Notes under the pieces: generated by a model
Databases searched by the model: none
Told to the model about the DNA's origin: nothing
Seen by the model: only the letters and a program-made list of their open reading frames with translations
Part shown: positions 2-47,401 of the stretch, piece by piece
How the letters are laid out: each line of letters begins with the position of its first letter
How positions within the stretch are numbered: position 1 is the stretch's first letter
Position numbers and translations under genes: made by a program
Assembly: GCA_034420195.1 (NCBI GenBank)
Contig: DAOULO010000050.1
Location: forward strand, 1-54,652
DNA: 54,652 nt
From: Dehalococcoidales bacterium
Lineage (GTDB): Bacteria; Chloroflexota; Dehalococcoidia; Dehalococcoidales; RBG-16-60-22
Reading direction: 5' to 3'

Positions 2-148
2 GCCTTCTTCAACAACCACTTGCAGGCCTACGCCCCCCGCAACGCCAACGACCTGAAAAGGGCCCTGCAGCTGCCGTTGCACGAGATACCGCGGCATTTG
101 AATATCGCCGAAGACGAGCATCTCCAAGCCGGCAAAGGAGCGGCCTGA
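2..148 (+). CDS. 3' end of an unidentified CDS (5' truncated by the window edge)
   Basis: The frame is open from the window edge to TGA at 146-148. Third-codon positions are strongly G/C, like neighbouring genes. I recognise no motif in the 48 aa (AFFNNHLQAYAPRNAND...). Confidence 0.3.
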   Translation, partial: AFFNNHLQAYAPRNANDLKRALQLPLHEIPRHLNIAEDEHLQAGKGAA

Positions 149-151
149 GAC

Positions 152-7405: not shown

Positions 7406-8644
7406 CTACCCCCCCAAAAACTGCAGCCCGCTGATGTAAATCCCGGTGATGATGGCGGTGGTAATCACGCCGGCCACGCACGGCCCCATGGCGAAGGGCA
7501 GTATCATCGCCCGCTTGTTCACCTGGAGGGCGCACTTCTGGGCGACCTTGGCGGTGGTGGGCACGCAGGATACAGCCGCCAGGCCCAGCAGGGGGTTAAA
7601 GGGTTTCTTGGTAATTTTGCCGAAGATTAAGCCGCCGGCGATGCCGCCCAGCCCGGAGAGCGTCAGGGCGATGACGCCCAGGGCCAGCAGCAGCAGCACC
7701 TTGGGGTTGAGGATGATGTCCACGCCGAGGAGGGCCCCCAGCGTGAAGCCCAGGAAGAGGGTCGAGCCGTAGAGGAGCGGCCCGGAGAGGAACTCCACGA
7801 AGCGGGTGATGCCCGCCTCCTTGACGGCCAGCCCCAGGAAGAAGGAGGCGAAGAGCGGCGTGGCCACCGGGAAGAGGAAGGCCAGCAGGGTAAAGGTGGC
7901 GATGCAGAAGGCGAACTTGGCCCCGGCGGGCACCTGGGGGATGGTGCGCCAGTCCATCTCCACCTTGCGCAGGCGCTTGGGGATGATGCGCGCCAGGAAG
8001 GGGAAACCGGCGTAGCAGATGCCCAGGTAGACGTAGGCCACCACCGTTATGGGCACGAAGAGGTCGGGGGCCATTCGCAGCGAGCCGTAGAGCACCATCG
8101 GCCCGTCGGCCCCGCCGACCAGGGCGATGGACGCCGCCTCGTTGGGGAGGAGGCCCATGCCCATGGCGATGGGCAGCGTGGCGATGGTGCCCAGCTCGGC
8201 GAAGACGGCCAGAAAGAGGCTCATGCCGGGGCGGGCCAGCAAAATATCAATATCCGTGATGGCGCCGATGCCCATAAAGACCAGGCAGGCGATGAGGCCG
8301 TTAGAGAACATGAAGGTGTAGACGGGCTGCAGGAAATCCACCTGGAGAAAGTACATCAGCTCGTTGAGGTTGCTGAGGGGGTTGGCGAAGAGGTTCCCGA
8401 TGGTGATGCCGGACGGGGTGGTTATGAGGCCGCTGACGTAGCTTGTCTCCAGAACCATCAGGCCGGCGTTGACGGCAATCATGCCGATGCCCAGCGGCAG
8501 CATGATGAGGGGCTCCAGGACTTTCTTATAAGAAAGATAGATAAAGAGAATCCCCAGGGCCACCAGCAACAGCCGCCCGATGACGATATCCGGCTCGGTG
8601 ATGGTGAAGGTATAGAGACCCTGGAAGAACTCTAAAAAGAACAT
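7406..8644 (-). CDS. Sodium ion-translocating decarboxylase, beta subunit (OadB/GcdB/MmdB family)
   Basis: 412 aa and polytopic. Family-typical blocks are YKKVLEPLIMLPLGIGMI, MGIGAITD, IALVGGADGP, and NPLLGLAAVSCVPTTAKVAQK...MGPCVAGVITTAI. Confidence 0.9.
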   Translation of the reverse strand: MFFLEFFQGLYTFTITEPDIVIGRLLLVALGILFIYLSYKKVLEPLIMLPLGIGMIAVNAGLMVLETSYVSGLITTPSGITIGNLFANPLSNLNELMYFLQVDFLQPVYTFMFSNGLIACLVFMGIGAITDIDILLARPGMSLFLAVFAELGTIATLPIAMGMGLLPNEAASIALVGGADGPMVLYGSLRMAPDLFVPITVVAYVYLGICYAGFPFLARIIPKRLRKVEMDWRTIPQVPAGAKFAFCIATFTLLAFLFPVATPLFASFFLGLAVKEAGITRFVEFLSGPLLYGSTLFLGFTLGALLGVDIILNPKVLLLLALGVIALTLSGLGGIAGGLIFGKITKKPFNPLLGLAAVSCVPTTAKVAQKCALQVNKRAMILPFAMGPCVAGVITTAIITGIYISGLQFLGG

Positions 8645-8657
8645 AGCTCAACCGCCT

Positions 8658-8807
8658 TCAGGTCTTGGGTGCGGCGCTATCCTCCGCGGGGGGCTTTTTC
8701 CGCTGGACGAGGCCGGCGATGACCTTGATGATGAGCGCTACCAGCACGGCGATGACGGCCGCCACGCCGTAGGCTATCAAGGCGAATACGATGGGATGAA
8801 ACTCCAT
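8658..8807 (-). CDS. Putative small membrane subunit of the decarboxylase (OadG/MmdD-like); not in the ORF track
   Basis: My own translation gives MEFHPIVFALIAYGVAAVIAVLVALIIKVIAGLVQRKKPPAEDSAAPKT (49 aa, one TM helix). It sits tightly between the biotin-carrier gene (21-nt gap) and the beta subunit (13-nt gap), as in known oad/mmd operons. It is short and has no diagnostic motif. Confidence 0.4.
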   Translation of the reverse strand: MEFHPIVFALIAYGVAAVIAVLVALIIKVIAGLVQRKKPPAEDSAAPKT

Positions 8808-11775: not shown

Positions 11776-11900
11776 GCCTCCTGGCAGTGGCATATTTTCC
11801 ACAAAGGGTTACCCCCTCAGTATCGTCTGCGCTGGGGCGTTTCACTTCCGTGTTCGGGATGGGAACGGGTGGGGCCACCCCGCTCTAACCACCAGGAGGC
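11776..11900 (-). rRNA. rrf: 5S ribosomal RNA (orphan; no 16S/23S nearby)
   Basis: The reverse complement reads GCCTCCTGGTGGTTAGAGCGGGGTGGCCCCACCCGTTCCCATCCCGAACACGGAAGTGAAACGCCCCAGCGCAGACGATACTGAGGGGGTAACCC...CCACTGCCAGGAGGC. This includes the universal CCGAACACGGAAGT loop and a closing helix I (CCTCCTGG / CCAGGAGG). A T5 run follows the 3' end. Confidence 0.85.
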
Positions 11901-14984: not shown

Positions 14985-16367
14985 TTAGCTTTCGGTATCG
15001 TCCGGCTTGTCCGCCTCGTCCGGCGCCTCTTTTATCTGCCGGCGGGCCTTCATCTGGTCGAGCACCTGCCGCTCGTAGCCCAGCTTGCCGGGCATGTAGA
15101 AGCGTTTGCCCTTGAGGGCGTCGGGCAGGTGCTGCTGCTCCACAAAATGGTCGGGGTAGTCGTGGGCGTATTTATAGCCTTCCCCGACGCCCATCTCCCG
15201 GTCCAGCTTGGTGACGGGGTTGCGCAGGTGGTTGGGCACCGTTTCGCTGGCGCCGCCCTTGATTTGCTCGCGCACGCGGTTATAGGCCACGTAGAGGGAG
15301 TTGCTCTTGGAGGCGGTGGCCAGGTAAACGGCCGCCTCGGCCAGGGCCAGGTTGCCCTCCGGCATGCCGATAAAGTGCACCGCCTGCTGGGCGGCCATGG
15401 CGATGACCAGCGCCTGGGGGTCGGCCATGCCCACGTCTTCTGAGGCGAAGCGCACCAGACGGCGGGCGATGTAGAGGGGGTCTTCGCCTGCCTCCAGCAT
15501 CATCGTCAGCCAGTAGATGGTGGCGTCCGGGTCGGAGTCGCGCATCGATTTGTGCAGCGCCGAGATGAGGCCGTAGTGCTGGTCGCCGGCCTTGTCGTAG
15601 GCAATCGCCCGTCGTTGCAGGACATCCTCGATGGTGGGCAGGGTGACCAGGCGCCGCCCCTCTTCGTCGGGGGTGGTGCTCAGGGCCGCCGTCTCCAGCG
15701 TGTTGAGGGCGACGCGGGCGTCCTGGTTGGCCCCGGCGATGAGGTGGTTCATAGCGTCCGGGGCCAGCTCGGCGTTGAGCGCGCCGATGCCCTGGAACTT
15801 GTCCTTGAGCGCCCGCAGGATGAGCGTCTGTATCTCCTCGCCGGTGAGAGGCTTGAGGGGGAGAACGCGGGTGCGCGAGAGCAGCGGCGAGGTGACCTCA
15901 AAGGAGGGGTTTTCCGTGGTGGCCCCGATGAGGGTGACGGTGCCGTCCTCGACGTAGGGCAGGACGGCGTCCTGCTGGGTCTTGTTGAAGCGGTGAATCT
16001 CGTCGATGAAGAGGATGGTCTTCTGGAGGCGTGCCTGGCGCCGCTCGGCCGCCTGCTGGACGATGCGGCGCAGGTCGCTGACGGAGGCGCTGACGGCGCT
16101 GACCGGGGCGAAGTGGGCGCCGGTGGTGTTGGCGATGATATAGGCCAGGGTGGTCTTGCCGCAGCCGGGCGGGCCCCAGAGAATCACCGAGGGGATGCGG
16201 TCGCTCTCAATGGCGCGGCGCAGCACGCGCCCCTTGCCGATGATGTGCTCCTGCCCCACGAAGGTATGCAGGCTGTTGGGGCGCATGCGGGTGGCCAAAG
16301 GGGCGTTGAGGGCCGATTCCTGGCCTTCCCCTTTACTTTCCGGCTGGGCGAACATGTCCATGCTCAT
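14985..16367 (-). CDS. rarA: Replication-associated recombination protein A (AAA ATPase RarA/MgsA)
   Basis: 460 aa. It has the Walker A motif LWGPPGCGKTT, Walker B LFIDEIHRFNK, and the MgsA C-terminal block DQHYGLISALHKSMRDSDPDA.IYWL. Confidence 0.93.
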   Translation of the reverse strand: MSMDMFAQPESKGEGQESALNAPLATRMRPNSLHTFVGQEHIIGKGRVLRRAIESDRIPSVILWGPPGCGKTTLAYIIANTTGAHFAPVSAVSASVSDLRRIVQQAAERRQARLQKTILFIDEIHRFNKTQQDAVLPYVEDGTVTLIGATTENPSFEVTSPLLSRTRVLPLKPLTGEEIQTLILRALKDKFQGIGALNAELAPDAMNHLIAGANQDARVALNTLETAALSTTPDEEGRRLVTLPTIEDVLQRRAIAYDKAGDQHYGLISALHKSMRDSDPDATIYWLTMMLEAGEDPLYIARRLVRFASEDVGMADPQALVIAMAAQQAVHFIGMPEGNLALAEAAVYLATASKSNSLYVAYNRVREQIKGGASETVPNHLRNPVTKLDREMGVGEGYKYAHDYPDHFVEQQHLPDALKGKRFYMPGKLGYERQVLDQMKARRQIKEAPDEADKPDDTES

Positions 16368-16447: not shown

Positions 16448-16522
16448 CCCCATCACCTCCCCCTCGGTGTTATCTATTCCCACCCGGCCGCCTTCTAGCG
16501 GCGGCGCCTTCGGGGCGGAGGG
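16448..16522 (+). repeat. Family-A REP/BIME-like unit (solo, 3' half diverged)
   Basis: CCCCATCACCTCCCCCTC..GTTATCTATTCCCACCCGGCCGCC... It contains the stop codon and the last roughly 10 codons of the 16495-17466 ORF. Confidence 0.65.
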
Positions 16523-17466
16523 GAATACCGTCTTTTTGATGGCAGCCTGCTGTCGCTGGCCCGCTTTTCGATATTGCCCATTTTCTCGTCCGTATCCTTT
16601 ATCTCTCCGGGGGCTTCTACCGCCCCGGCATCTTTCCCGATTTTCTCGATGGTCTTGATGGCTTCGGCGCCGGTCAGCCTTTTCTTTCTGGCCAGCCGCT
16701 TGGCTAGGGCGATACACTGCTGGCGGGTTGCTCCTTGGCGGAAAAGCCGGTCGCTCAAGCCATCCCGCTTCCCGTACAGCCAGGCGGCCACGGTTCTGGG
16801 CTCCAAACTCCGGGACGACAGGAGGTATCCGTCCCAGCCGGTCTGGCGGATAAACCGGTCTCGGAGTTCCGTGATGAACCCGGCGGTAAGCTGTTTCTCC
16901 TTAAATTGTTTTCGGCTCTCGCCGGCGAGATAGGATTGGAGCGGCTCCGGGTACTGGCTCACCGGGTCGGTCGGTTGCGGTATCAGTACGTCGATAAGGC
17001 AGGCCATTACCCCCTGGGTGTTTTTGCCAGATAACCCTATTATTTTGCAGATATCCCCTACGTCTTCACTCGCCCTGGCCACAAATGCCCCCAGGCCGGC
17101 GCGCCTCTCGTACTTTTCGGTCTTCAGGTATGGGGCCAGGGTTTCTTCGGCAACCCATCCGGCCAGTAAGACATCGGCAATCTTGCCGATTTCGATGGCG
17201 AGGTTCCGGGTCGCTTCGTCGGCGGAGTCCTTTATTTTCTCATCGAGGCTGAGGTCGGGGAAGGCCCGGTTGTTAATCAGGTCCAGATTGATGATGTCTG
17301 CCCTCGATTCCCGCAGGATGGCCCTGGCTCCGGCCGACAATTCCGGGAGGGCAATCTCGGTGCTGCCTTTTTCTTTCTCGATGTAGACCTCTTTGATTTC
17401 AAAGCCATGAGCCGCGGCCATGACGGCGTGACCGGCTTCGTGAACGGCGATGGTGTCCAGTTTCAT
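16495..17466 (-). CDS. Stand-alone FtsH/M41-like zinc metallopeptidase-domain protein with an uncharacterised C-terminal half
   Basis: 323 aa. The N-terminus MKLDTIAVHEAGHAVMAAAHG carries the HEAGH zinc site in the FtsH-type context. LLAGWVAEETL downstream resembles the FtsH LLGGRAAEE helix. There is no AAA module and no TM helix. The ATG follows GAGGAGAAAGGGAA. By eye, GC is lower than in the flanking genes. The C-terminal tail runs into a repeat unit. Confidence 0.55.
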   Translation of the reverse strand: MKLDTIAVHEAGHAVMAAAHGFEIKEVYIEKEKGSTEIALPELSAGARAILRESRADIINLDLINNRAFPDLSLDEKIKDSADEATRNLAIEIGKIADVLLAGWVAEETLAPYLKTEKYERRAGLGAFVARASEDVGDICKIIGLSGKNTQGVMACLIDVLIPQPTDPVSQYPEPLQSYLAGESRKQFKEKQLTAGFITELRDRFIRQTGWDGYLLSSRSLEPRTVAAWLYGKRDGLSDRLFRQGATRQQCIALAKRLARKKRLTGAEAIKTIEKIGKDAGAVEAPGEIKDTDEKMGNIEKRASDSRLPSKRRYSPPPRRRRR

Positions 17467-17493: not shown

Positions 17494-17576
17494 ACCTCAC
17501 CCCCTGTGTCCCCCTCTCCTGGCGAGGCGTGCCGCAGGAGAGGGGGAGGTTTAGGGAGAGGGGCTGCGCCCCTCTT
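17494..17576 (-). repeat. Family-D double-hairpin repeat (copy 3, inverted)
   Basis: ACCTCACCCCCTGTG-TCCCCCTCTCC..GGAGAGGGGGA..GAGAGGGGCTGCGCCCCTCTT is the reverse complement of the arrangement at 7270-7374. It lies between the HEPN-like gene stop and the peptidase gene RBS. Confidence 0.8.
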
Positions 17577-17588
17577 AGATGTCCTGCT

Positions 17589-18353
17589 TTATTGAACCAC
17601 AAAGCTTCCAATATCTGACCAATATCCAGGAGCGATTGGCATTATAGGCCTTACTCGCCAAAAATAGGTCATGTTTTCACCAGTAGTTGCCTCGTATTTA
17701 AATGTTGTATTTCTAATACTGTTACTACCTGTTGCATTAACGACTGGAATTGGAAAGTCAGGACTCGTAGCAATTAGTAATTCATACGCTACAGCGTTAG
17801 GGACTTCTTGCCAAACTAATTCTATTTTCCCATCCGAAATTACTGCTCCATTAGGAGGAGATATTAGTACTGTTTGACGAATGTGCAGAGAAAACTTATA
17901 TACTAAATAAACGACTGATTCAATGTAATTGGCTACATCCTCAATTTTTGGTATGTCGATTTGTTCGTTATCAATTTTGAGTCCCTTTCTATCTATTTGC
18001 CTTTTAATTCTTTCAAGAGAATCTTGTGTTTTACCTTTATGCCAATAAGAATGTACGAATTGATTCCTCTTTTCGTTTACGTTTGTAACCTGCGAGAACA
18101 TTTCCTTAGCGTAATTTGGTAAGTCGTCATCTCGCCCGATGTTATATTTTTGCATATATAATGCTTTTAACATAGCTAATAAACGTGAAAATGCTAATCC
18201 TGCTGTAACAACGCTCGCGCCTTCTATTCCCATTAAAATATTGATGCAATCTATTATTAGTTCTTCAATCAATCCAAACTTAACAGTAATCTTGCCCATT
18301 GCCTTGATAAAGGCTTCATTATAAATTATCTTCTCTTGATACGGTTTCTTCAT
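17589..18353 (-). CDS. AT-rich foreign gene: HEPN-like N-terminal domain (RNQFVH) fused to an S-layer-stalk-type beta-sandwich domain
   Basis: 254 aa with no signal peptide or TM helix. The helical N-terminal half contains NEKRNQFVHSYW, which fits the HEPN Rx4H motif with Asn after Arg. About 90 C-terminal aa (ISPPNGAV...VWQEVPNAVAYELLIATSPDF...TYFWRVRP...YWSDIGSFVV) align with the stalk domains of both large surface proteins. Sampled 60-nt lines are 28-32% GC, against 68% just outside. Confidence 0.6.
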   Translation of the reverse strand: MKKPYQEKIIYNEAFIKAMGKITVKFGLIEELIIDCINILMGIEGASVVTAGLAFSRLLAMLKALYMQKYNIGRDDDLPNYAKEMFSQVTNVNEKRNQFVHSYWHKGKTQDSLERIKRQIDRKGLKIDNEQIDIPKIEDVANYIESVVYLVYKFSLHIRQTVLISPPNGAVISDGKIELVWQEVPNAVAYELLIATSPDFPIPVVNATGSNSIRNTTFKYEATTGENMTYFWRVRPIMPIAPGYWSDIGSFVVQ

Positions 18354-18377
18354 TAACTAAATTTTCTCTCCTCCCCC

Positions 18378-19691
18378 TCACTTATACCTCTTAACTTCAA
18401 ATCTATAAAGCTCCACCGGCTCGTCCGGGCCGATGCCGCCCTTCTGGCGGCAAATCTCAATCTGCTGCGCGGCGGTGTCCACGCCCTCCAGGTCGGGCAG
18501 GAGCAGGCCGCGCTGCCAGCCGGCGGCGACGATGACGCCGTACTTGCTGGGGTCGAGTGAGCTTTCGTCTTTTATCTTTTCGGGCGGGGTGAGCACGTCC
18601 ACGCTGTAGTCCAAATCGGCCAGCTCGTCGGGGGTGATAGCGTTGAAGCGGGGGTCGCGAGTGGCCGAGCTGACGGCGTTGGTGATAATTTCCTCGGCCA
18701 CGTTGGGCTGCTGCGGCTCGAAGGTGCCGATGCAGCCGCGCAGCGCCCCGCGCTTGTGGATGGAGACAAAGACCCCGGCCTGCGCCCGCATCTCTGGGGT
18801 GAGGGTCTGGGGGGGTGGGGGCGTACGACCCTCCCGGACGTAGCTTTCCACGGTCGCTTTAGCCAGCTCCACCAGGGGATGGCGCGCCGCCTTGAAGATG
18901 ACCCCGGCGTAGCCGACGACGGCGTCGTAGTCGCCGGTGGTGTCGCCGCTGGTCTGGTACTTCACCAGCTCGGCGCCGCTGGCCCCCAGCTCTCTGGCGG
19001 CGGTTATCAGCGCGACCACCGGCCCGTGGGCGCACATGGAGATGTTCAGTGCCTCGTAGCGGCGGGTAAGCTCGTCGGCGTCGAGGGCGAGCATGGCCTC
19101 AATGGCGGCCCGGTCCTTCTTCTCGGCGACGGCCTGCGGCTCGTAGTGGGTCATGTCGCCGCTGGCGATGATTACCGCCTCGCGTTTTAATTTCTGCATG
19201 GCCTTGGCGATGCCCTGGCCGACCTCCTGGTAGGCCTGAGCGGGGGCGTGGGCCAGGATGATGGGGACGATTCGGATATCCGGCTGGAAATACTGCAGGA
19301 AGGGCAGCTGCACCTCCACGGCGTGCTCCTGGCGATGGGCGGCCTCGTCGGCCTCGGCGTACTTGGAGGCGGCGATAATCCCCTGCGCCAGCTCGGTATC
19401 GGTCTTGACGTCGCCCAGGGGCGTGCGCCACGTTCCCTCGGCCATGACGCTGAAGGGCTTGCCCAGGCCACTGTGGCTGGGCCCCATGATGACGAAGGTC
19501 TCCTTGAACTTGAGGCGGGAGACGACCGCCCCGGCCACCGCCCCGGAATAGGGGTAGCCGGCGTGGGGCAGCAGCGCGCCGACGGCGTCCTCTTTAGGCG
19601 CCTGCTTATCAATAAACACCTCCAACATTTCGCGGATTTCGGTCGCCGAGCCGGGGTAGTACCGCCCGGCGGCGTAAGGATTTCTTATCAT
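18378..19691 (-). CDS. AmmeMemoRadiSam system protein B (Memo-like) fused to protein A (AMMECR1 domain)
   Basis: I trimmed the ORF to the ATG at 19691 ([14 protein letters not shown]...). The Memo block is [11 protein letters not shown]. The C-terminal AMMECR1 block is [21 protein letters not shown]. The start abuts the stop of the radical SAM gene. Confidence 0.88.
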
Positions 19692-19692
19692 C

Positions 19693-20718
19693 TCACCCCT
19701 CCCTGGGGCGGAAATTGAGCTCCGCCCCGCACGACCGGCATTTGGAGCCGTTAAGCCCCCCGGCATCCGTTTCGTAGCCGTACCTCTTCACGGCAGCCTT
19801 ACCGCAGGCCGGGCAGCGGGTGCTCTCGCTCTGGTGGCCGGGGACGTTGCCGGCGTAAACGAACTTGAGCCCCGCCTTTTCCCCGATGGTGACGGCCCGC
19901 TCGATGGTCTCCAGGGGGGTGGGCGGCAGGTGGGTGAGGTGGTGGTGGGGGTGGAAGCGGGTGACGTGCCAGGGAGTCAGCTCGCCCAGGTTATCGTGTA
20001 TCCACCCGGCGATGCCGCCAAGCTGCGTCTCGTCGTCGTTCATGGTGGGGATGATGTTGGTGACCACCTCCACGTGCATGTCCCACTTGTCCTTGGCCCG
20101 CCGGGTAACGTCCAGAATCTCGCGCCAGTGGGGAATGCCCGCCAGCTGTTTATAAAACTCGTCGGAGAAGCCCTTGATGTCCACCCGCCAGGCGTCCAGG
20201 TAGGGGCCGATGGTATCCAGCGCCTCCGGGGTGGCGTAGCCGTTGGTCACGTAGACAGTGTAGAGACCGGCCTCCTTGGCCAGTTTGGCCGATTCCAGCG
20301 TGTGCTCCAGCCAGATGACCGGCTCGTTGTAGGTCCAGGCCATGCCCCGGCAGCCGTATTTTTGGGCCAGCGCCACCGATTGCTCGGGGGAAAGCTCGCG
20401 GCAGCCGTGGCTGAGGGCGCTGCCGTCGGCGGTGGAGATTTCCCAGTTCTGGCAGTGCTTGCAGTGGAAGTTGCAGCCCAGCGTCCCCAGCGAGAAACAG
20501 AGCGTGCCGGGGTAAAAGTGGAAGAGGGGTTTCTTCTCGATAGGGTCGGCGGCCAGGGACGAGACCCGCCCGTAGTTGAGGTTATTGAGGGTGCCGTCCT
20601 GGTTCTGGTACATGCCGCAGACGCCGTATTTGCCCGGATTGATGCGGCAGCGCCACTGGCAGGTTGAGCACCTTACCCTGGAGTCCGGCAGTTTTTCGTA
20701 AAGCACGGCCTCGCGCAT
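19693..20718 (-). CDS. AmmeMemoRadiSam system radical SAM enzyme
   Basis: 341 aa. The radical SAM cluster motif is [11 protein letters not shown]. An N-terminal Cys-rich segment ([17 protein letters not shown]) and C-terminal CPACG...CRSCG are typical of this family. Confidence 0.9.
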
Positions 20719-39591: not shown

Positions 39592-42500
39592 CTAGATGCG
39601 CCGTATCTTGAGGGCCATGGCCAGGATGACGAGCAGCGCCAAGGTGATGATGAAGAGCAGCCCACCGACGAGGTAGATGGCCCAGCCGGAAATGATAAAG
39701 GAGTTGCCGGGGTCGGGCAAGGAGGTGTCGTCCTGGGCGGGCGGCGGCAGGGCCGACGGCGCTGGCGTTGACGCTGACGACGGCGTGGCGGTGAGGATAA
39801 GGCCGTCCACGGCGGGCGACCTCAGGCTCAGGGCATCGGCGGTTGGCGGAAACTCGGGCGCCGGCGTTTCCTCTGGGGGCGCGGTCGTTTCCGGCGGCGG
39901 TGCCGTGGTGAAGGCGCCCACGGCGCTCCAGATACTCAGCGAGTTATTATTGATGGCCCTGACCTTCCAGTAGTAGGTGGTGGCGTATTCCAGGCCGACG
40001 TCGCACTGCCAGGCATTGCTGGGGAGGGCGTATTCACCCGTCTTGACGATGGCCGGGTGGAGAAAGTCCATGGCCGCGGCCACCAGCAGCTCGTAGGCGG
40101 TGGCCCCGGCGATGGCCGTCCACTGAAAGACCGGTTTCACCGCCACCCCGCTGGCCCCGGCGGGCGGGCTTTCCGGCCGGAGGGCGATGGGCTCGGTATC
40201 CAGGGTGGTGATAAAGGTCTGCGTGGCCGACCAGGGGCTCAGCACCGGGCTGCTGGCTCGCACCCGCCAGCGGTAGGTGGTGTCCGGTTCCAGGGCCGGC
40301 AGGCGGGCGGAGCTGGCGGCGGTGGTCTCCTGAAGCCCGTCGGGGATAGAGGCGAAGCTGGTCCCGGCGGTGCACTGCCACTGGTAGGCGGTGGCCCCCG
40401 GCAGGGTCTCCCAGTCGAGGACGACGTTGCGGATAGTGTGGTCGGTCAGGGTGCCGCCGCCGGTGGTGCCGTCGCCGGGGGAAACGGCCACGACCGGGTC
40501 GGTCAGGGTATCGTTAAAGGTCATCAGCCTGAGGTTGGTAGTATCCACCGACCAGAGGCGGCGGCCCGCCTGCCACAGCCCGGTGAGGGTGGCGTTATCG
40601 GCCAGGCCGCGGGTCACCGTTTCGAAGGTCGGGCCGAGGGGGAAGCTCGGGTTGAGGCAGCGCTCCAGGCCCCCACCGCTGTCGCTGTTGGCGGCGTAGA
40701 GCGTGCCCGTCGGGGATACCTGCAGCCGGTTGAGTTCGGCCCCGGCGGGCAAAGTGCCGTCGATGGCCACCCAGTCGGTGCTGGCGCCGATGACGAAGCG
40801 GGCCACGCCCCCGTCGGCGCTGTCGCTGGCGGCGTAGACGGTGGCGTTTGCGGCGAAGCCGGTATCGAAAGCGACGCTGATGTGGTCGGTAAGCGGCGCG
40901 GCGGCGGCATCTCCCGGCAGGCATTGGAAGGACTCGCCGTTATCGGTAGAATAATAGACCCAGCCGTCGCTGTTGCCGGTAAGGATGGTGCCGTCCTGCG
41001 GGTAGCCGGGGGAGAGGGCGAGGGAGTTGAGGGGCTGGCCGCCGGCCTCGGTCGCGGTGTCGTAGAAGAAGCCGCCATTGTCCGTGCGGTAGACGGTCTG
41101 GTGGCTGGCGACGAAGAGGACGCTGTCGCTGGCGATGGCCCAGGTATCGATGCTGAAGGCGGTGCCGCTAACGGGGTCGTGGGTCAGGCGGCGGCGGAAG
41201 CACTGGCCATCATCCTCGGACTGCCAGAGGGTGGGGCTGCCGTCGCTTTCCCCCGCCGCGAAGACGGTGGCGACACCCGCGCCGTACTGCGGCGGCAGGC
41301 CGACCAAAGTCAGGGTGTCCACCTCACTGAGGTGGCTGGACAGGATGCGCTCCCAGGTGCTGCCGCCGTCCCGGCTGCGCCAGAGGCTGCTATTGCCCCC
41401 GCCGAAGGTAACCATGAAGAGGGTGGTGTCCTGTTCGTAAGCGGGCGAGGGCGCCAGGTCGACGATGGTGCTGATGGCGCCGTCAATCAGCCCCAGCTGG
41501 TTCCAGGTGCCGCCGCCGTCTCGGCTCACCGAAAGGGCGCTGCCGTCGCCGCTGGTGGCGGCGTATATCCGTCCGCTGACGGCGAAATCCGGCGGCATAA
41601 GTGCCACCGTGGCCGACCCGCCGGTCGGCTCTCTCTGGCTCATCGTCCAGGAGGTGCCGCCGTCGCTGCTGAGATAGACCTGGGCGCTCCCGGACGCCCC
41701 GGCCAGAACGGTAGCCGGGTTGCCCCCGCCGGCGGCCAGCCCCCGGATGTCCACATTGGCCTGACCGTAGAGCTGACCGATGTTGAGGTCGATGGCCAGC
41801 GAGGCGGCCGGGGCGTTATTGACGTAGATTTTATACACGTCGCCGGTGCCGGTGCCGGTAGTAATGCCCACGAAGAAATGCCGGATGCCGCCGGGGGTGA
41901 CGGGGTCGTAGCCGCCGGGGAAGGCGACCGCCGCCGGTGAGTCAGCCGCAACGGGAGTGGGCATCCCGGAGTTGTCCCGGTCCAGCCGGGCCGGGCCGAT
42001 GTGGTCGCCCCAGCCGGCATTACCGACTTTACTGGCGACGAAGGTATCGGTCTCGTCGGTGAGGACGGCGGTAAGCTGGCGGTCGTAGTTGTAGCCGGGC
42101 GAGAAGGCCACGGCGCCGACGTCATAATCCCCCACGCCGGTATCCGTCCAGAGCGAGTAGGCATTGGCGGCCTCCAGCGTGTAGACGCCGCCGTACTGGC
42201 CGGCGTCACCGTCGCGGGTGCCGACGGCGATGACATCGCTGCCACCCCAGGCCACCGCCAGCGAGGTGATGACAATATTGCCGCTGCCGGCCCCACCGGG
42301 ATTGGGCGGCAGCCAGGCGAAGGTCTTGCCGCCGTCGCTGGAGCGGTAAACGTCTGAGGCCGTGGCGTAATAGATATTACCGTTATCGCCGGGCGAGACG
42401 GCGATACCGGCGATGTCGTCCTGCACGCCCCCGATGTGCTGCCAGCTGGAGCCGTTATCCACGGAGCGGTAGAGGGTGTAGGTCAGCCCGGCGCAAGCGG

Positions 42501-42771
42501 CGTAAAGGGTGCCGTCGGGGGCGGTCGTCAGGTGGCGGATATCGGAGCCGTCGGCCAGGCCCCAGCCCCCGGCCTCGCCCTGGGTGGGAATGGCGACCCT
42601 TGTCCAGGTAACCGCGTCATCAGCGGCGGCGGGCAGGGCGGGGATAATGGCCCCGAGGCCAAGCAAAGTGATAATCCCGAAGCAAAGGACGTGCCGTCCC
42701 AGGGTGGCTTGGCGGGGGGGCCTGTTCTTTGACACATGGCGAATTCTACTGCTAAATGGTAGGGAAGTCAA
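39592..42771 (-). CDS. Large surface (S-layer-like) protein 1: signal peptide, BNR/Asp-box beta-propeller repeats, two stalk beta-sandwich domains, PT-rich linker, C-terminal TM anchor
   Basis: 1059 aa. The start is uncertain: TTG at 42771 or GTG at 42735, neither with a clear SD. The signal-like segment is LCFGIITLLGLGAIIPALPAAADD. Asp-box motifs are SVDNGSSW, SSDGGKTF, SSDGGTSW, SRDGGGTW, SRDGGSTW and STDNGESF. Two ...AYxW/AYELL...TYRWRVRA/TYYWKVRA...WS..F.T domains follow. The C-terminus is PT-rich, then FIISGWAIYLVGGLLFIITLALLVILAMALKIRRI. Confidence 0.75.
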   Translation of the reverse strand: MTSLPFSSRIRHVSKNRPPRQATLGRHVLCFGIITLLGLGAIIPALPAAADDAVTWTRVAIPTQGEAGGWGLADGSDIRHLTTAPDGTLYAACAGLTYTLYRSVDNGSSWQHIGGVQDDIAGIAVSPGDNGNIYYATASDVYRSSDGGKTFAWLPPNPGGAGSGNIVITSLAVAWGGSDVIAVGTRDGDAGQYGGVYTLEAANAYSLWTDTGVGDYDVGAVAFSPGYNYDRQLTAVLTDETDTFVASKVGNAGWGDHIGPARLDRDNSGMPTPVAADSPAAVAFPGGYDPVTPGGIRHFFVGITTGTGTGDVYKIYVNNAPAASLAIDLNIGQLYGQANVDIRGLAAGGGNPATVLAGASGSAQVYLSSDGGTSWTMSQREPTGGSATVALMPPDFAVSGRIYAATSGDGSALSVSRDGGGTWNQLGLIDGAISTIVDLAPSPAYEQDTTLFMVTFGGGNSSLWRSRDGGSTWERILSSHLSEVDTLTLVGLPPQYGAGVATVFAAGESDGSPTLWQSEDDGQCFRRRLTHDPVSGTAFSIDTWAIASDSVLFVASHQTVYRTDNGGFFYDTATEAGGQPLNSLALSPGYPQDGTILTGNSDGWVYYSTDNGESFQCLPGDAAAAPLTDHISVAFDTGFAANATVYAASDSADGGVARFVIGASTDWVAIDGTLPAGAELNRLQVSPTGTLYAANSDSGGGLERCLNPSFPLGPTFETVTRGLADNATLTGLWQAGRRLWSVDTTNLRLMTFNDTLTDPVVAVSPGDGTTGGGTLTDHTIRNVVLDWETLPGATAYQWQCTAGTSFASIPDGLQETTAASSARLPALEPDTTYRWRVRASSPVLSPWSATQTFITTLDTEPIALRPESPPAGASGVAVKPVFQWTAIAGATAYELLVAAAMDFLHPAIVKTGEYALPSNAWQCDVGLEYATTYYWKVRAINNNSLSIWSAVGAFTTAPPPETTAPPEETPAPEFPPTADALSLRSPAVDGLILTATPSSASTPAPSALPPPAQDDTSLPDPGNSFIISGWAIYLVGGLLFIITLALLVILAMALKIRRI

Positions 42772-42792
42772 TACCTTTGGCGGGGTCTTAAT

Positions 42793-42822
42793 TTGGACAA
42801 ACCGGGGCGGTGATTATATACT
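42793..42822 (+). promoter_or_regulatory. Candidate promoter of moeA
   Basis: TTGGAC (42793-42798), then TATATA/TATACT (42815-42822) after a 16-18 nt spacer. Confidence 0.3.
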
Positions 42823-42855
42823 GGTGTTGAGGAATTTCCCACCGGAGGAGCGACC

Positions 42856-44121: not shown

Positions 44122-44171
44122 ACGTAAGTTTACCCCTCCGGCCTTTCCCGGCTGAATTTTCAGGAGAAAGA

Positions 44172-44201
44172 GAGAGCCCCCCGAAATTTCGGGGGGCTCT
44201 C
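44172..44201. terminator. Perfect 30-nt palindrome between convergent moeA and the surface protein 2 gene
   Basis: GAGAGCCCCCCGAAATTTCGGGGGGCTCTC has an 11-13 bp GC-rich stem. No strong T-run follows on either strand. Confidence 0.55.
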
Positions 44202-44242
44202 GAACCTTCCTCAGAAGGCTACGGTATTATCCCTTGTCGTTA

Positions 44243-47200
44243 CTAGACAGAGCGCCTAGTGCGGACAATCAGGATAATGACCGCAATCACCAGTACGGCA
44301 CCGATGACGATTATCACCCAGATGTAGGCCGGGGAAATCTCCTCGGTTGCAGGCGGCTGGAAGGTTACCTGGGTTGCCTGCGGTGCGGGCGGGATGGTAA
44401 TCGTGGGTGCGGGTACCTGCGTGATTACTACCGGAGGTGCAGCGGTCGGAGGTGTTGCCGCGCCAGAACCCGCGACACCAACCGTGGTGAAGGCTACGGT
44501 GGGCGCCCAGGTGTTGTTGGTGCCAGCACCGATGGCCCTTACCGTCCAGTAGTAGGTGGTGTTGTAGTCCAGGGTGTAGACGGCTGCCGTCAGCTTGTAG
44601 GCGTTGACAACACCCAGGGCGTTGGCGCCGGTGAGGTCAACCAGCAGGTTGGTCAACGCGGCGTCGGTGCCCAGCTTGAACTCGTAGCCGGTGGCGCCAG
44701 CGATGCTACCCCACTGGAAGGCGGGGTTGACATCGGCGTCCCAGCCGCCGTAGTTCGTGCCGCCCTCGAACGGGCCGAGGATGACCGGCGAGTTGACAAC
44801 CGCCGCTACCAGCTCGGTGTTGAAGGTGTAGGTCGAGGACCACGGGCCGAACACTGGCCACCGTACTCGTACCTGCCAGTAGACGGTCTGACCGTTGACG
44901 GGCAAGCGGGGGACTGCCAGTGGAGGTAGAGGAGCGGCAGCGATCACGACGACGGTGGGATCGAAGAGGATCGCCGAGTTAACGGGAACAGCCGAGAGGA
45001 AGTCGGCGCGGGTGTCGTAGCGCATCGTGTAGTTCCAGGCACCGGGGACAGCACTGAAGGTGAAGGTGACGGAGGCCTGGGTGTTGTCCACCACGCTGCC
45101 GACCGCCGGGGTGATGCCCGTCGGGGTGGCGGTGCACAGGGTGTCGGTGAAGGTGCGCACCAGGGAAACGTTGCGGGCAACGGCCCAGATGACGTCGCCG
45201 CCCTTGGTCATGACGGTCAGGGTATCACCGACAACGAGCAGGTCACCCCCGGTAACGAGCTCGACCAAGGCCGGGACCGGGACCAGCGGGTCAAGGATGC
45301 GGAGCATACCGCCAGCTATGGGAGTCGAGGCCGTGATGTCGGTGGCGTAGAGTGCGCCGCACGGGTCGGAAAAGATGTCCTGCGGCAACAGGTTGATGCC
45401 ACCGTCAATGGCGAAAACACCCCAGTTGGTGCTGATGCCTATCGTGGCGCGCCAGACGCCGGCCGCACCGTTATCCGCGGCGTAGATGGTGCTGTTGGTG
45501 GCGTAGTTGGTATCGAATTCAACGATACCTGCACCAACGTTACCGCCGGCACCGATGGCCAAACCACCAGCGACCGGGACGTAGCTGATGTTGCCGTTGG
45601 TGGAGAGGTAGACAACGTTGGCGGCCGAGGCGACCAGCAGGTGGCCGGTAGCCGTGTCAACCTTGATTTGGTTGACGGCACCACCAGCCACGATGGGCGT
45701 GGCGGCTACCTGCCAGGTCCAGCCGCCGGTGGTGGTGGACTGAACGTTGGTTGCCGCTGCGCCGCCGACGTAGATGGTGTACTGGTCTCTAACGGCGACA
45801 TCTCCGGGGCCTATCGGGCAGGAGCGTCCGGCCCAGGTGGCGCCGCCGTCGACGGAGATTTGGATGTTACCGGCGACCACTGCGGCGTTGATGTCGGCCA
45901 GGTAGACGGTCATATCCGTCGCGTAGTTGGGGGAGGGTCGGACGATACCGGTATTGCCGGCGAGAACAGCCGAGTATACGCGGTACCAGACAGCGCCGCC
46001 GTCGGTGCTCTTCCAGAGGCTATCCGCGCCACCAGCGCCGTCGTTGGTCAGCATGAAGATTTCGGTGGCGCTGACGGCCTGGATGTCGTTGATGCCGGCG
46101 GGGGCAACGATGAAGGTATCAATGAGGCCGGACTGGTAGAAGTTGGCGCCATTGTTATCGGAGATGGAAACGCCGCTGTTGAGGCCGGTCGTGCCGGCGT
46201 AGATGCGGCTGCTGGTAGCGTAGTCGTTGGCCGGGTAGACGTAGGTGCACTCACCGCCGACAGTAGCGCCGGTGGGCGGAGCCCAGGCGGCCGTGAAGGC
46301 AATGAAGACCGACGCAGGATTGGTCGAAACGTAGACCTGGGTGTTCGCGGCCGCGCCGGCAATCAGGCTGCCGGTGGCGCCCATGCCGACGAAGGCCAGG
46401 CTGGAGAACGTAGCATCGGCCACCAGGGTGGAGGGCTGAATCAGGGTGGGGCCGACCGCCGAGCCGACGGCCAGGCGGTAAAGCCTGTCATCGGGCTGGC
46501 CACTGCGCGCGGCCACGTAGACGGTGCGCGCCAGCGGCTGGCTGCCGTTGAAGTCGGACGGGATGGCCAGCTCAGCAGTGACGATGCCGGTACCAACCCC
46601 GCCAACATCAAGGATGGCGCCGGTCGGCGTGGCAATGGCCACGGCCGCGCCGATGGTGGCATCCCAGGCGGCGCCGGTGACCAGGGTGTGCACCGCGGTG
46701 CGCGCCGCCGTGGAGGCGACGCAGATGAGGGTGGCGTCAATGGGGAAGTTGGGCGAGTACATCACATCGGTGACATCCTCAGTACCGGCGAAGACAGCAT
46801 CGTAGCTTGCCCAGTTCTGCACGCCGCCGCGGCCCCAGATGAGGACATCGGGAAGAGCCGCGACACCGGCGAGCGGGTCGGCCAGGCCAAGGGCTATCTC
46901 GCCGACGCCGGCGTTATAGTTGGGAGAAACGGCCACCGAGGTGGCCAAGAGGCCAGCACCCCCGGTCCCGCCGAGGACGGCGAAAGTCGCACCCCAGTTG
47001 GTGGAGATGTAGACCTGAGCTAAGGGGGCGACGGTATTGCCCGCCACGATAACGGTGCCGTCAGTCGCGTAGCTGGGCGAAATCTCCAGGTCCACGATGT
47101 TGGCGGGAATCGCCACCGAGGGTATCCAGGTGACACCGCCGTCAATCGAGCGGTAGACGACGTCGGCCGCGGCCGGGTTGGTGTCGACGGCTAAGATATC

Positions 47201-47401
47201 GCCGTTGGGCGCTACCTTCACGAATGAGGCGTCAACACCAAGTGTTGCTGCTGTGAAGATCTGGAAGGTCAGAGGACTGGGGATTGCCTGAGTCGACCAG
47301 GCCAGCGTGGCGGCCGAGGCCGGTAAGGCTATGACGAGAAGACTGGCCAGCAGTATCAGCGCCAGACCAACGCCACAAAGTTTAACTAGTCTTTTTTTCA
47401 T
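44243..47401 (-). CDS. Large surface (S-layer-like) protein 2, paralogous in architecture to 39592-42771
   Basis: 1052 aa. The ATG follows AGGAGGAAAT. The signal peptide is MKKRLVKLCGVGLALILLASLLVIALPASAA. Asp-box motifs are SIDGGVTW, STNWGATF, SDNNGANF, STDGGAVW and SVDGGATW. Two stalk domains follow (...GQTVYWQVRV..GPWS..YTF.T; ...FQWGSIAGATGYEFKL...TTYYWTVRA...W...VAFTT). Then come a PT-rich linker, a TM helix (AYIWVIIVIGAVLVIAVIILIV) and RTRRSV. Confidence 0.8.
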   Translation of the reverse strand: MKKRLVKLCGVGLALILLASLLVIALPASAATLAWSTQAIPSPLTFQIFTAATLGVDASFVKVAPNGDILAVDTNPAAADVVYRSIDGGVTWIPSVAIPANIVDLEISPSYATDGTVIVAGNTVAPLAQVYISTNWGATFAVLGGTGGAGLLATSVAVSPNYNAGVGEIALGLADPLAGVAALPDVLIWGRGGVQNWASYDAVFAGTEDVTDVMYSPNFPIDATLICVASTAARTAVHTLVTGAAWDATIGAAVAIATPTGAILDVGGVGTGIVTAELAIPSDFNGSQPLARTVYVAARSGQPDDRLYRLAVGSAVGPTLIQPSTLVADATFSSLAFVGMGATGSLIAGAAANTQVYVSTNPASVFIAFTAAWAPPTGATVGGECTYVYPANDYATSSRIYAGTTGLNSGVSISDNNGANFYQSGLIDTFIVAPAGINDIQAVSATEIFMLTNDGAGGADSLWKSTDGGAVWYRVYSAVLAGNTGIVRPSPNYATDMTVYLADINAAVVAGNIQISVDGGATWAGRSCPIGPGDVAVRDQYTIYVGGAAATNVQSTTTGGWTWQVAATPIVAGGAVNQIKVDTATGHLLVASAANVVYLSTNGNISYVPVAGGLAIGAGGNVGAGIVEFDTNYATNSTIYAADNGAAGVWRATIGISTNWGVFAIDGGINLLPQDIFSDPCGALYATDITASTPIAGGMLRILDPLVPVPALVELVTGGDLLVVGDTLTVMTKGGDVIWAVARNVSLVRTFTDTLCTATPTGITPAVGSVVDNTQASVTFTFSAVPGAWNYTMRYDTRADFLSAVPVNSAILFDPTVVVIAAAPLPPLAVPRLPVNGQTVYWQVRVRWPVFGPWSSTYTFNTELVAAVVNSPVILGPFEGGTNYGGWDADVNPAFQWGSIAGATGYEFKLGTDAALTNLLVDLTGANALGVVNAYKLTAAVYTLDYNTTYYWTVRAIGAGTNNTWAPTVAFTTVGVAGSGAATPPTAAPPVVITQVPAPTITIPPAPQATQVTFQPPATEEISPAYIWVIIVIGAVLVIAVIILIVRTRRSV

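Follow-up and report, generated by a model that had tools for sequence, protein, structure and literature searches.

ORF254, a solitary fusion of a HEPN-like domain and an envelope-type FN3-like domain in a Dehalococcoidales contig, is a candidate RNase toxin or defence effector

The closest described counterparts of the protein reported here are in the HEPN superfamily, nearest to the Cthe_2314-like group (PF18730), most members of which are stand-alone, sporadically distributed bacterial proteins. Published HEPN domains carry an Rx4-6H motif at the end of helix 3, with a polar residue (N, D or H) after the arginine (PMC3710099), and for Cthe_2314 the 2013 survey recorded 'Rx4-6H conserved; no architectures detected' (Anantharaman et al. 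2013, PMC3710099). Solitary HEPN effectors of abortive infection and defence are typically kept inactive until infection (PMC3710099); AbiV, AbiD/F, AbiU2 and ApeA are single genes with a HEPN RNase domain, located in variable neighbourhoods rich in defence or toxin-antitoxin (TA) genes. CapRel (PMC9712102) provides an analogy only; its toxic N-terminal enzyme is followed, within one chain, by a C-terminal domain that may serve as a restraint on the enzyme and as the binding site of a trigger protein. A second kind of relative is found outside the cell, among the FN3-like domains represented by Ig_Rha78A_N (PF25788), Pur_ac_phosph_N (PF16656) and fn3 (PF00041), and by BNR/sortilin surface proteins of the type named SP1 below.

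ORF254, encoded in the 54,652-nt stretch of Dehalococcoidales DNA that was analysed as a whole (the window), resembles both. With the Cthe_2314-like proteins it shares an all-helical core of ~160 aa and a strict Rx4H motif, with Asn after Arg, at the end of helix 3, but it differs from them in a 30-residue basic beta-hairpin after the motif, in PF18730 matches that stay below threshold within its family and in the C-terminal FN3-like domain that one clade adds. The combination of HEPN and FN3 is absent from the architectures of the 2013 survey, which has 0 mentions of fibronectin (PMC3710099), and was not found in the literature searched. Compared with the Abi proteins and ApeA, ORF254 lacks a match to any PADLOC model of these systems and its appended domain is an extracellular-type FN3. 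The enzyme of CapRel is a RelA/SpoT-like pyrophosphokinase, unrelated to HEPN, and its sensor fold is also unrelated; auto-inhibition or trigger binding by ORF254 would be by analogy. The extracellular domains have the same fold as the ORF254 C-terminus and share with it the signature SP..GA...P.F.W..V.GA..YEL.[IV]A....F ... TY[YF]W[RK]VR[PA] ... WS....F.; every other carrier that was examined has a signal peptide, a T9SS tail or a C-terminal anchor and counts as secreted or anchored, whereas in the fusion clade the domain comes without a signal and is linked to a nuclease-type domain. ORF254 is plausibly a member of a well-known class and not a new kind of system. The features of the gene are as follows:

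17589..18353, minus strand: HEPN-like/FN3-like fusion gene ORF254, solitary, 254 aa plus stop (ORF list)
17868..18353, minus strand: HEPN-like N domain, residues 1-162 (AF2 model from a 106-sequence alignment, pLDDT 92)
18051..18068, minus strand: putative catalytic Rx4H motif, R96-N97-Q-F-V-H101, with S102 and W104 next (conservation in 106 sequences)
17955..18047, minus strand: basic beta-hairpin insert, residues 103-133, right after the Rx4H motif and including conserved R115 and K117 (model and conservation)
17592..17867, minus strand: FN3-like beta-sandwich, residues 163-254 (BLASTP to SP1; Foldseek to FN3 domains)

The start was placed at M1 (18353), since homologues align with conservation from residue ~4; a 236-aa gene-caller version starting at M19 was rejected as too short. 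The gene has a GC content of 0.35 and a GC3 of 0.29, as compared with GC3 values of 0.85-0.90 in the flanking genes, and both halves are AT-rich (GC 0.33 in the N half and 0.39 in the C half), forming a tract of ~0.8 kb with a single gene within. By hydropathy, ORF254 has neither a signal peptide nor a membrane anchor, while the two large surface proteins of the window, SP1 (39592..42771, minus strand) and SP2 (44243..47401, minus strand), have both. The segment singled out in the first-pass annotation (17592-17870) corresponds to C-terminal residues ~162-254.

The N-terminal half had previously been described as HEPN-like, and our analysis agrees. Prediction by AF2 from ORF254 alone was unusable (pLDDT 43), and the model built from the 106-sequence alignment was used instead. 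It places helices at residues 13-41, 55-69 and 80-100, followed by the beta-hairpin at 103-133 and a last helix at 134-162; R96-H101 lies where helix 80-100 ends on its C-terminal side. Across the 106 sequences R96 and H101 were invariant and N97, S102, W104, R115 and K117 were at least 90% conserved; a 50-sequence alignment of the N-domain likewise gave invariant R96 and H101 and at least 90% conservation of N97. The family thus shows the Rx4-6H motif with a polar residue after Arg that is published for HEPN domains (PMC3710099), and the HEPN topology is matched by the predicted order of secondary-structure elements, as distinct from a superposition with a solved HEPN domain. The basic beta-hairpin may contact RNA.

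When ORF254 itself was scanned with Pfam, NCBIfam, PADLOC and PHROGs, nothing significant was returned, and no curated HEPN, Abi, TA or defence model reached its threshold for ORF254 or its relatives. PF18730 (HEPN_Cthe2314) matched 13 of the 106 members below its gathering threshold of 27.1 bits (best E = 1.7e-4; 16.2 bits for P0004 and 12.7 bits for P0013) and did not match ORF254; PF18736 matched two of the 106 weakly. Weak matches within the N-domain family were also obtained to the PADLOC models Csx1 and CARF_HEPN and, in three members, to NCBIfam Csm6, so that weak matches from four independent libraries converge on HEPN-bearing families. PDB sequence searches with the protein and two profiles gave nothing relevant, and no relative has a solved structure. 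Because the Foldseek lists obtained with the full ORF254 model against PDB and BFVD were filled by FN3 matches, the assignment rests on the motif, the predicted topology and the weak matches, which suggest that the N-domain is HEPN-like and forms a previously unannotated clade of the superfamily. Among the BFVD entries, a 159-aa viral protein that carries no name (A0A4Y5TZQ9, TMt 0.68) is probably a match to the N-domain.

Exhaustive phmmer searches gave 376 relatives of the N-domain at E<=1e-3, counted as clusters at 50% identity, most of them stand-alone proteins of 150-190 aa; word-indexed protein searches yielded very few matches. The stand-alone genes occur singly, often with more AT than the DNA around them, and adjoin IS transposase or type III restriction-modification genes.

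For the C-terminal domain, the copies in the window are as follows:

39895..40200, minus strand: SP1 domain B, membrane-proximal and FN3-like, residues ~858-959, the closest relative of the ORF254 C-domain within the window
40198..40506, minus strand: SP1 domain A, residues ~756-858, a more distant copy (BLASTP, HMM)
44474..44797, minus strand: SP2 domain B, residues ~869-976 (BLASTP, HMM)
44807..45133, minus strand: SP2 domain A, residues ~757-865, the most distant copy (BLASTP, HMM)

BLASTP aligned ORF254 residues 165-250 with SP1 residues 868-953 at 33% identity over 86 aa (50% positives, no gaps, E = 2e-12), bearing out both the alignment with the second SP1 stalk domain and the identity of roughly 30% that the first-pass annotation had estimated by eye. 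The second match was the first domain of SP1 (E = 7e-5), and the two SP2 domains were matched with E = 3e-5 and 0.011. In Smith-Waterman comparisons SP1 domain B reached z = 19.3, a score attained by 0 of 1000 shuffles, so that the similarity is significant; z was lower, at 9.3 and 9.4, with SP1 domain A and SP2 domain B, and lowest, at 3.5, with SP2 domain A. An HMM search of the six-frame translation found exactly five copies in the window (two in SP1, two in SP2 and one in ORF254), in agreement with the earlier statement that each surface protein carries two.

The SP1 and SP2 domains match the extracellular FN3-like Pfam models mentioned above; whole SP1 scored above the cut-offs of Pur_ac_phosph_N (38.8 bits) and Ig_Rha78A_N (37.1 bits), the best stretch for the latter being residues 879-957, within domain B. 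The ORF254 C-domain itself reaches no Pfam threshold (P0003 and P0008 scored 18.9 and 20.9 bits, respectively, against a threshold of 27.4 bits), and its membership is therefore assigned by transitive homology through SP1. In the model, the C-domain is predicted to be a seven-strand beta-sandwich of FN3 topology, and Foldseek gave a probability of 1.0 to FN3 domains, including 3mpc_A (TMt 0.66, rmsd 3.2) and titin Fn3-85 (TMt 0.70).

More than 100 proteins carrying this domain were found in a metagenome scan. When a profile was built from the C-domains of the other fusions, leaving ORF254 out, the SP1-type B domains scored 74-81 bits (L047_B 81, L050_B 81, SP1_B of the window 79 and L037_B 74), while the other FN3-like domains of the sample, which consisted of metagenome matches picked with ORF254 as the query, scored at most 65 bits, i.e. 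9-16 bits lower. Group-mean Smith-Waterman scores followed the same order, with 119-162 for B-type domains, 81-102 for other sampled domains and 47-85 for A-type domains. By these sequence comparisons the fusion C-domains are specifically related, at the family level, to SP1-type membrane-proximal domains, beyond what a generic FN3 domain would give. This relation does not extend to the individual host: the ORF254 C-domain scored 130 with domain B of its own SP1, whereas fusions from other genomes scored 113-165 with that same domain B (six of eight at 150-165), so that ORF254 was no closer to this SP1 than the foreign fusions were, and several unrelated secreted proteins scored higher with ORF254 than its own SP1 domain B did (up to 149). 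A recent duplication of the host's SP1 domain was rejected on the identity of only 33%, the difference in GC3 (0.23 in the C-domain and 0.87 in SP1) and the age of the fusion clade.

The fusion architecture recurs in nine signal-less metagenomic relatives. It was found in P0003 to P0008, L013 and L014, all of which lack a signal peptide, and no fusion relative has a membrane anchor, in line with the signal-less state noted at the outset for ORF254. Mean identity among members was 41% for the N halves and 42% for the C halves; with the C-domain no more variable than the N-domain, a hypervariable sensor domain was rejected. Every member retains R96, N97, H101, S102 and W104. Of the ten known copies, two are decayed, by an in-frame stop in L013 and by a 5' truncation in L095. 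In a scan based on a four-sequence alignment, the fusion was absent from 185,579 GTDB species-representative genomes, where only stand-alone N-domains and FN3 proteins were present, and the search of viral and plasmid records that had been proposed gave no fusion relative in IMG/VR, PLSDB or INPHARED. Between loci the fusion gene is 35-60% identical, as compared with 60-77% for its flanks, indicating faster evolution, and its GC content is always 35-40% in hosts of 48 to 63% GC.

In six related contigs the fusion gene lies beside a Memo-AMMECR1 gene and/or RarA. The borders of this slot in the window are as follows:

14985..16367, minus strand: RarA/MgsA gene, conserved downstream border, 70% identical to the RarA adjoining the fusion in L001, L013 and L095
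18378..19766, minus strand: Memo-AMMECR1 fusion gene, conserved upstream border, after the radical-SAM gene (19693..20718)
18381..18410, minus strand: last 10 codons of Memo-AMMECR1, AT-ending and present as a sole copy in the window

The Memo-AMMECR1 protein of the window is 62-69% identical to that encoded upstream of the fusion in L002 and L013. Since its last 10 codons are AT-ending, the AT-rich tract begins inside this gene; they also stand ahead of the fusion in L001, which is rearranged, L002 and L014. The fusion gene starts, on the same strand, 24 nt after the Memo-AMMECR1 stop in the window, 11 nt after it in L002 and ~17 nt after it in L014, and because of this short, co-oriented spacing (11-24 nt) it could be co-transcribed with the housekeeping operon. 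Other cargo shares this small, variable slot with the fusion, namely RHH-ParE pairs (L001, L013 and L014) and a DUF5677 protein (L014); in L013 a TA pair lies between Memo-AMMECR1 and the fusion gene, and in L095 a fusion remnant was kept while the operon side was lost. The adjoining gene varies from locus to locus (a 323-aa HEAGH protein in the window, a 94-aa ORF in L001, RarA directly in L013 and L095, and DUF5677 in L014), and PADLOC gave no match for ORF254, the L014 fusion, P0008, P0009 or P0010. No conserved antitoxin or partner gene was found across the compared loci, which, like the possible co-transcription, counts against a toxin or defence role.

The first-pass annotation had considered the gene to be borne by a mobile element, a view that did not survive. 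No integrase, transposase or att duplication was found at the AT-rich tract, and the AMMECR1 3' end, of which an att remnant would be a duplicate, occurs only once in the window; core genes flank the fusion gene in syntenic order, and the viral and plasmid records hold no relative. An integrated mobile element was rejected on these grounds. Direct and inverted repeats at the flanks come down to one G-rich word of 10 nt, which may serve in ribosome binding.

We favour, at about even confidence, the reading that ORF254 is a putative RNase toxin or defence effector, solitary and of HEPN type, that captured an envelope-type FN3 domain as a built-in regulatory module. A stand-alone HEPN gene of ~160 aa would have captured one envelope FN3 domain once, or at most twice, after which both halves would have diverged together. 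Like other HEPN proteins, ORF254 would be a metal-independent RNase, harmful when active, in which a dimer probably brings two Rx4H motifs together. By analogy with CapRel, the FN3-like domain may hold the enzyme inactive and/or bind a trigger or partner protein, and activation would lead to cleavage of cellular RNA and growth arrest, as a toxin or as an effector of abortive infection.

The first-pass annotation had speculated instead that the domain acts as a receptor-mimic decoy, in which the FN3 module imitates the surface stalk, binds new viral receptor-binding proteins and switches on the HEPN RNase in abortive infection. The nearest non-fusion relatives of the fusion C-domains are indeed SP1-type membrane-proximal domains, the host of the window encodes two such surface proteins, ORF254 is devoid of export signals, and phage tail and tip proteins often contain FN3-like folds, making contacts between domains conceivable. 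Mimicry of this host's stalk is nevertheless not supported, given the absence of host-specific matching and a C-domain without the extra variability expected of a sensor surface in an arms race, and the copied domain adjoins the membrane, where the stalk is probably least exposed; we consider the decoy unlikely. The more general proposal that the lineage made a cytoplasmic copy of the membrane-proximal FN3-like domain of its own surface protein, joined to a HEPN RNase, as bait for viral proteins or for stalk precursors, seems similarly improbable. Same-family beta-sandwich domains can pair with each other, and this established ability, together with the specific affinity to SP1-type domain B and the cytoplasmic location, would suit a guard or partner of envelope biogenesis, whose FN3 domain binds SP1/SP2 precursors or domain B in the cytoplasm and whose RNase is tied to export block or overload. 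This model, which is pure inference, is quite unlikely given that similarity within the same genome is not in excess and that the SP1 and SP2 genes are unlinked, more than 21 kb from ORF254 in the window.

The position of the gene could point to an accessory subunit of the AmmeMemoRadiSam system, co-transcribed with the radical-SAM and Memo-AMMECR1 genes and acting on that system's substrate, for instance in RNA processing. The short same-strand spacing described above favours it, as does the persistence of the last 10 AMMECR1 codons with the fusion even in the rearranged L001. The fusion has, however, a GC3 of 0.29 against 0.85 in the operon genes, a TA pair separates the two genes in L013, the remnant in L095 has outlasted the operon side, and AMMECR1 never adjoins the stand-alone N-domain relatives. 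Moreover, the AmmeMemoRadiSam triad is widespread in bacteria and archaea, in contrast to a fusion that is absent from the GTDB species representatives, and we regard this role as very unlikely. A non-catalytic or decaying remnant, with RNA cleavage lost and the gene neutral or slowly eroding, would account for the two broken copies (L013 and L095) and for the missing partner gene, but it is an unlikely explanation in view of an intact copy in the window, of the five residues retained in every member, of a co-evolution signal sufficient for a model of pLDDT 92 and of a fusion that has persisted in lineages with RarA identities of only ~70%.

With a solitary HEPN-type effector as the preferred reading, several consequences follow. 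If the N-domain is an active HEPN RNase, a sizeable clade (376 clusters) lies outside the models of Pfam, NCBIfam, PADLOC and PHROGs. The recruitment of an extracellular-type FN3 domain into a cytoplasmic toxin-like protein is an unusual architecture, and its kinship to a membrane-proximal module of the envelope offers a concrete hypothesis on the regulation or triggering of a solitary HEPN effector. The persistence of a low GC content in a fast-evolving gene beside conserved neighbours also bears on how conflict genes escape amelioration. If the bait proposal were true, prokaryotes would have a decoy-type innate immune sensor, of a kind that has yet to be described in them.

One further feature lies just 3' of the ORF254 stop:

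17509..17575, minus strand: two GC-rich stem-loops, at 17557-17575 and 17509-17547 (13-bp stem), seen as inverted repeat I6 and in the RNA fold centroid

The region as a whole folds no better than shuffles (z = -1.4), and the two stem-loops may be terminators or REP-like elements.

We compared the FN3-like C-terminal domain of ORF254, whose N-terminal domain is HEPN-like, with those of the two large surface proteins of the window, SP1 and SP2, each carrying a domain A followed by the membrane-proximal domain B. The genes are:

17589..18353, minus strand, ORF254, 254 aa (17592-17870 is its C-terminal third)
39592..42771, minus strand, SP1, 1059 aa
44243..47401, minus strand, SP2, 1052 aa

BLASTP aligned residues 165-250 of ORF254 with SP1 868-953 without gaps (33% identity, 50% positives, E = 2e-12), with a weaker second match in domain A of SP1 and two weaker matches in SP2. 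Against 1000 shuffles, Smith-Waterman alignment of the C-domain gave z = 19.3 for SP1 domain B, 9.3 for SP1 domain A, 9.4 for SP2 domain B and 3.5 for SP2 domain A, and an HMM of the copies found exactly five of them in the six-frame translation of the window. The first-pass annotation had aligned the C-domain with SP1, estimated about 30% identity and counted two domains in each surface protein; these analyses therefore confirm its alignment, identity and count, with a similarity that is statistically significant.

Both surface proteins begin with a signal-like hydrophobic segment and contain BNR/sortilin-type repeats, FN3-like domains matching Pur_ac_phosph_N, Ig_Rha78A_N and fn3, a Pro/Thr-rich linker and a C-terminal membrane anchor, with domain B adjoining the linker and anchor. 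Metagenome contigs L037, L047, L050 and L073 encode proteins related to SP1 over its full length (~30% identity over ~960 aa). SP1 and SP2 are paralogues of ~1050 aa, encoded on one strand 1.5 kb apart (39592-47401) with a MoeA-like gene between them (42856-44121, plus strand), and their B domains resemble each other much more closely (Smith-Waterman score 141) than A resembles B inside either protein.

The domain type is widespread: in a metagenome scan, more than 100 proteins showed 29-39% identity to the ORF254 C-domain. Ten were classed by reading their full sequences: in L016 and L017 (~685 aa) the domain follows a signal-like segment close to the N-terminus; L033, L086 and L065 share the HExxH motif of zinc proteases; L053 has multiple repeats; and L021, L037, L047 and L052 are SP1-like, over the full length for L037 and L047 (~29-30% over ~960 aa). 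About a dozen more matches had the length and domain position of L016 and L017, a type that we read as type IX-secreted from its C-terminal tail motif. For ORF254 alone, several scan proteins equalled or outscored domain B of its own SP1, at up to 149 against 130. When the fusions were taken together, mean Smith-Waterman scores of their C-domains were 163-270 against one another, 119-162 against SP-type B domains, 81-102 against other sampled FN3-like domains and 47-85 against SP-type A domains, a clear preference of the whole clade for B domains. A profile of fusion C-domains from which ORF254 was excluded gave 92 bits for ORF254, 81 for both L047_B and L050_B, 79 for SP1_B of the window, 74 for L037_B and at most 65 for every other sampled domain. 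Fusion C-domains and B domains also share the sub-signature TG..a[LI]....[WY].C[DE]..L[DE]Y.T.Y[YF]W[KR]VR[PA], and the C-domain of the relative P0008 is equally near to B domains and to other fusions. Because the preference for B domains holds in scores, profile bits and sub-signature, the C-domain is not a generic FN3 domain lacking a specific relation to the stalks. It is FN3-like and of envelope ancestry, with the fold of extracellular Ig_Rha78A_N/Pur_ac_phosph_N-type domains, membership of which follows by transitive homology, and this specific ancestry is one of the two main points of interest of the fusion. The most economical history would be capture of the membrane-proximal stalk domain by a stand-alone HEPN gene.

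The two-domain architecture (257-275 aa) recurred in the relatives P0003, P0004, P0005, P0006 and P0008; P0007 is a truncated copy, and metagenome contigs L013 and L014 hold further ones. Signal peptides and membrane segments are absent from all members. Since the halves are equally diverged (mean pairwise identity 41% for N-halves and 42% for C-halves), the fusion is old and its halves evolve as one unit. It was not found among GTDB genomes, one per species. The fusion genes, their settings and the junctions with the AMMECR1 3' end are:

Window, fusion 17589-18353, with the Memo-AMMECR1 fusion gene upstream and RarA downstream; junction 18381-18410, minus strand
L001 (P0004), fusion 278-1054, upstream of RarA; junction 235-277
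L002 (P0003), fusion 8001-8783, immediately behind radical-SAM and Memo-AMMECR1 genes as in the window; junction 7957-7989
L013, fusion 7998-8771, flanked by Memo-AMMECR1 and RarA
L014, fusion 143-919, directly after the AMMECR1 3' end; junction ~100-125
L095 (P0007; GenBank MAG GCA_042583405.1), fusion 2037-2612, upstream of RarA, with PhoU, PitA and ClpC genes following as they do in the window

Upstream of Memo-AMMECR1 in the window are its radical-SAM partner and a PMT-family glycosyltransferase. Flanking orthologues are 60-77% identical and the fusion proteins 35-60%. With conserved neighbours in related contigs and no fusion in IMG/VR, PLSDB or INPHARED, the earlier description of the gene as mobile-element-borne was not supported. 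No recognisable mobile element carries it.

The ORF254 gene has a GC of 0.35 and a GC3 of 0.29, alike in both halves, beside neighbours with GC3 of 0.85-0.90. Across the six contigs, fusion genes kept a GC of 0.35-0.40 and a GC3 of 0.27-0.36 in hosts of about 48 to 63% GC, while the neighbours were conserved and flanking proteins ~70% identical. This host-independent AT-richness beside constant neighbours, the second point of interest, may reflect selection for a low GC content or repeated allelic replacement. The AT-rich tract starts inside Memo-AMMECR1, whose last 10 codons are AT-ending (3/10 GC-ending, versus a GC3 of 0.85 for the gene). In L001 the same 10 codons plus a stop lie 16 nt ahead of the fusion gene, and the 245 nt before them contain in-frame stops and lack any AMMECR1 coding sequence, so the junction seems to travel with the fusion.

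The slot holds other cargo. A closely related RHH-ParE pair lies downstream of the fusion in L001 (1599-2097) and L014 (2093-2585) and upstream in L013 (~7480-7990), and in L014 an AT-rich stretch between fusion and pair encodes a 274-aa protein (1135-1959) matching DUF5677 (27.9 bits; cut-off 27.1). A 323-aa ORF (16495-17466, minus strand; GC3 0.72, below its neighbours) has an N-terminal HEAGHAV motif, an FtsH/M50-like zinc-protease signature, with no significant family or PDB match; since among the compared loci it lies between fusion and RarA only in the window, it is probably further cargo. Two copies have decayed: in L013 an in-frame stop (~8706-8708) replaces the Arg of the conserved YYWRVRP, and the L095 copy has lost its first ~60 codons, abutting an AdoMet decarboxylase gene at 2037. 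Stand-alone relatives of the N-domain, as seen in isolate genomes and MAGs, are encoded by solitary genes that are often richer in AT than the DNA around them and adjoin an IS transposase or type III restriction-modification genes. Slot, cargo, decay, AT-richness, divergence and the neighbours of stand-alone relatives together are the signature of a conflict gene that is dispensable, evolves fast and occupies a small hot spot of the chromosome, and not that of plasmid or prophage cargo. The fusion's neighbourhood is of TA and defence type.

No curated library searched recognised ORF254. An exhaustive phmmer search with residues 1-163 gave 376 cluster representatives at E<=1e-3, mostly 150-190 aa long and without a further domain. 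Across an alignment of 106 sequences, R96 and H101 were invariant and N97, S102, W104, R115, K117, G20, F26, L29, E30 and F55 at least 90% conserved, which makes R-N-x-x-x-H-S-x-W the core motif. The AlphaFold2 model from this alignment (pLDDT 92, pTM 0.79) has helices at 13-41, 55-69, 80-100 and 134-162; R96-H101 lies at the end of the third, and a basic, conserved beta-hairpin (103-133) separates the last two. HEPN domains are described as having an Rx4-6H motif with a polar residue (N, D or H) behind the Arg, placed like this one where the third helix ends, and Csx1 likewise has a beta-hairpin directly after its motif (PMC3710099). Matches below curated thresholds to PF18730 HEPN_Cthe2314 (13/106 members, best E = 1.7e-4), PF18736 (2/106), PADLOC Csx1 and CARF_HEPN, and NCBIfam Csm6 (three members) converge weakly on HEPN-bearing families. 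PDB searches found no solved structure related by sequence, and FN3 matches took up the Foldseek lists obtained with the whole model, which left the N-domain fold without an independent match. The domain very probably belongs to the HEPN superfamily, whose motif and topology it has, and is best treated as an unannotated clade close to the Cthe_2314-like group, whose curated threshold it misses. The viral BFVD protein A0A4Y5TZQ9 (159 aa; 156 model columns, TMt 0.68) probably matches this domain, and nine family members weakly matched the unannotated phage family phrog_26374, so the family may have phage-encoded relatives.

We give about even credence to ORF254 being a HEPN-type RNase, harmful when active, with an FN3-like regulatory module. 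By analogy with other HEPN enzymes, the N-domain would be a metal-independent RNase that probably needs dimerisation; the FN3-like domain would be a built-in module that inhibits the enzyme in cis and/or binds a trigger or partner, as modelled on the fused toxin-antitoxin sensor CapRel (PMC9712102). No conserved partner gene was present in the loci compared. The likeness to solitary HEPN Abi and defence effectors is one of functional analogy, PADLOC giving no such match for ORF254, and the HEPN-FN3 architecture is absent from a 2013 HEPN survey (PMC3710099) and from the literature searched.

The receptor-mimic decoy of the first-pass annotation would be of high interest if true, and we consider it unlikely. 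No matching of ORF254 to this particular host was seen when eight fusions from other genomes were scored against SP1_B of the window (113-165; six at 150-165, above the 130 of ORF254). Just as unlikely is a non-catalytic or decaying remnant; the catalytic-type residues of the ORF254 HEPN-like domain are intact. A protein guarding the surface-protein precursors of its own host seems slightly less likely, and least probable is an accessory of the AmmeMemoRadiSam operon: the fusion starts 11-24 nt past the Memo-AMMECR1 stop, but its composition, its narrow distribution and the TA insertion in L013 contradict this role.

Several further features were observed. The Memo-AMMECR1 ORF is listed as 462 aa (18378-19766, minus strand), overlapping the radical-SAM gene end by 74 nt; since its orthologues (435-438 aa) start at MIRNP, translation probably begins at Met 26 inside the listed ORF. 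The 5S rRNA gene at 11779-11896 (minus strand; 91 bits) is complete and unlinked, the 54.6-kb window having no 23S, 16S or tRNA gene. Two GC-rich stem-loops without U-tract, one with a perfect 13-bp stem, directly follow the fusion stop (17509-17575, minus strand), and GC-rich palindromes of other sequence (GGATTCCCGC...GCGGGAATG) lie upstream of the fusion in L001 and downstream, at the contig end, in L002. Four copies of the 10-mer GAGGGGGAGG are present in the window (0.4 expected), three of them bracketing the fusion and 323-aa genes; the word may be Shine-Dalgarno-like or belong to a REP-like repeat:

773-782, plus strand, GAGGGGGAGG
16456-16465, minus strand, GAGGGGGAGG
17540-17549, plus strand, GAGGGGGAGG
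18370-18379, minus strand, GAGGGGGAGG
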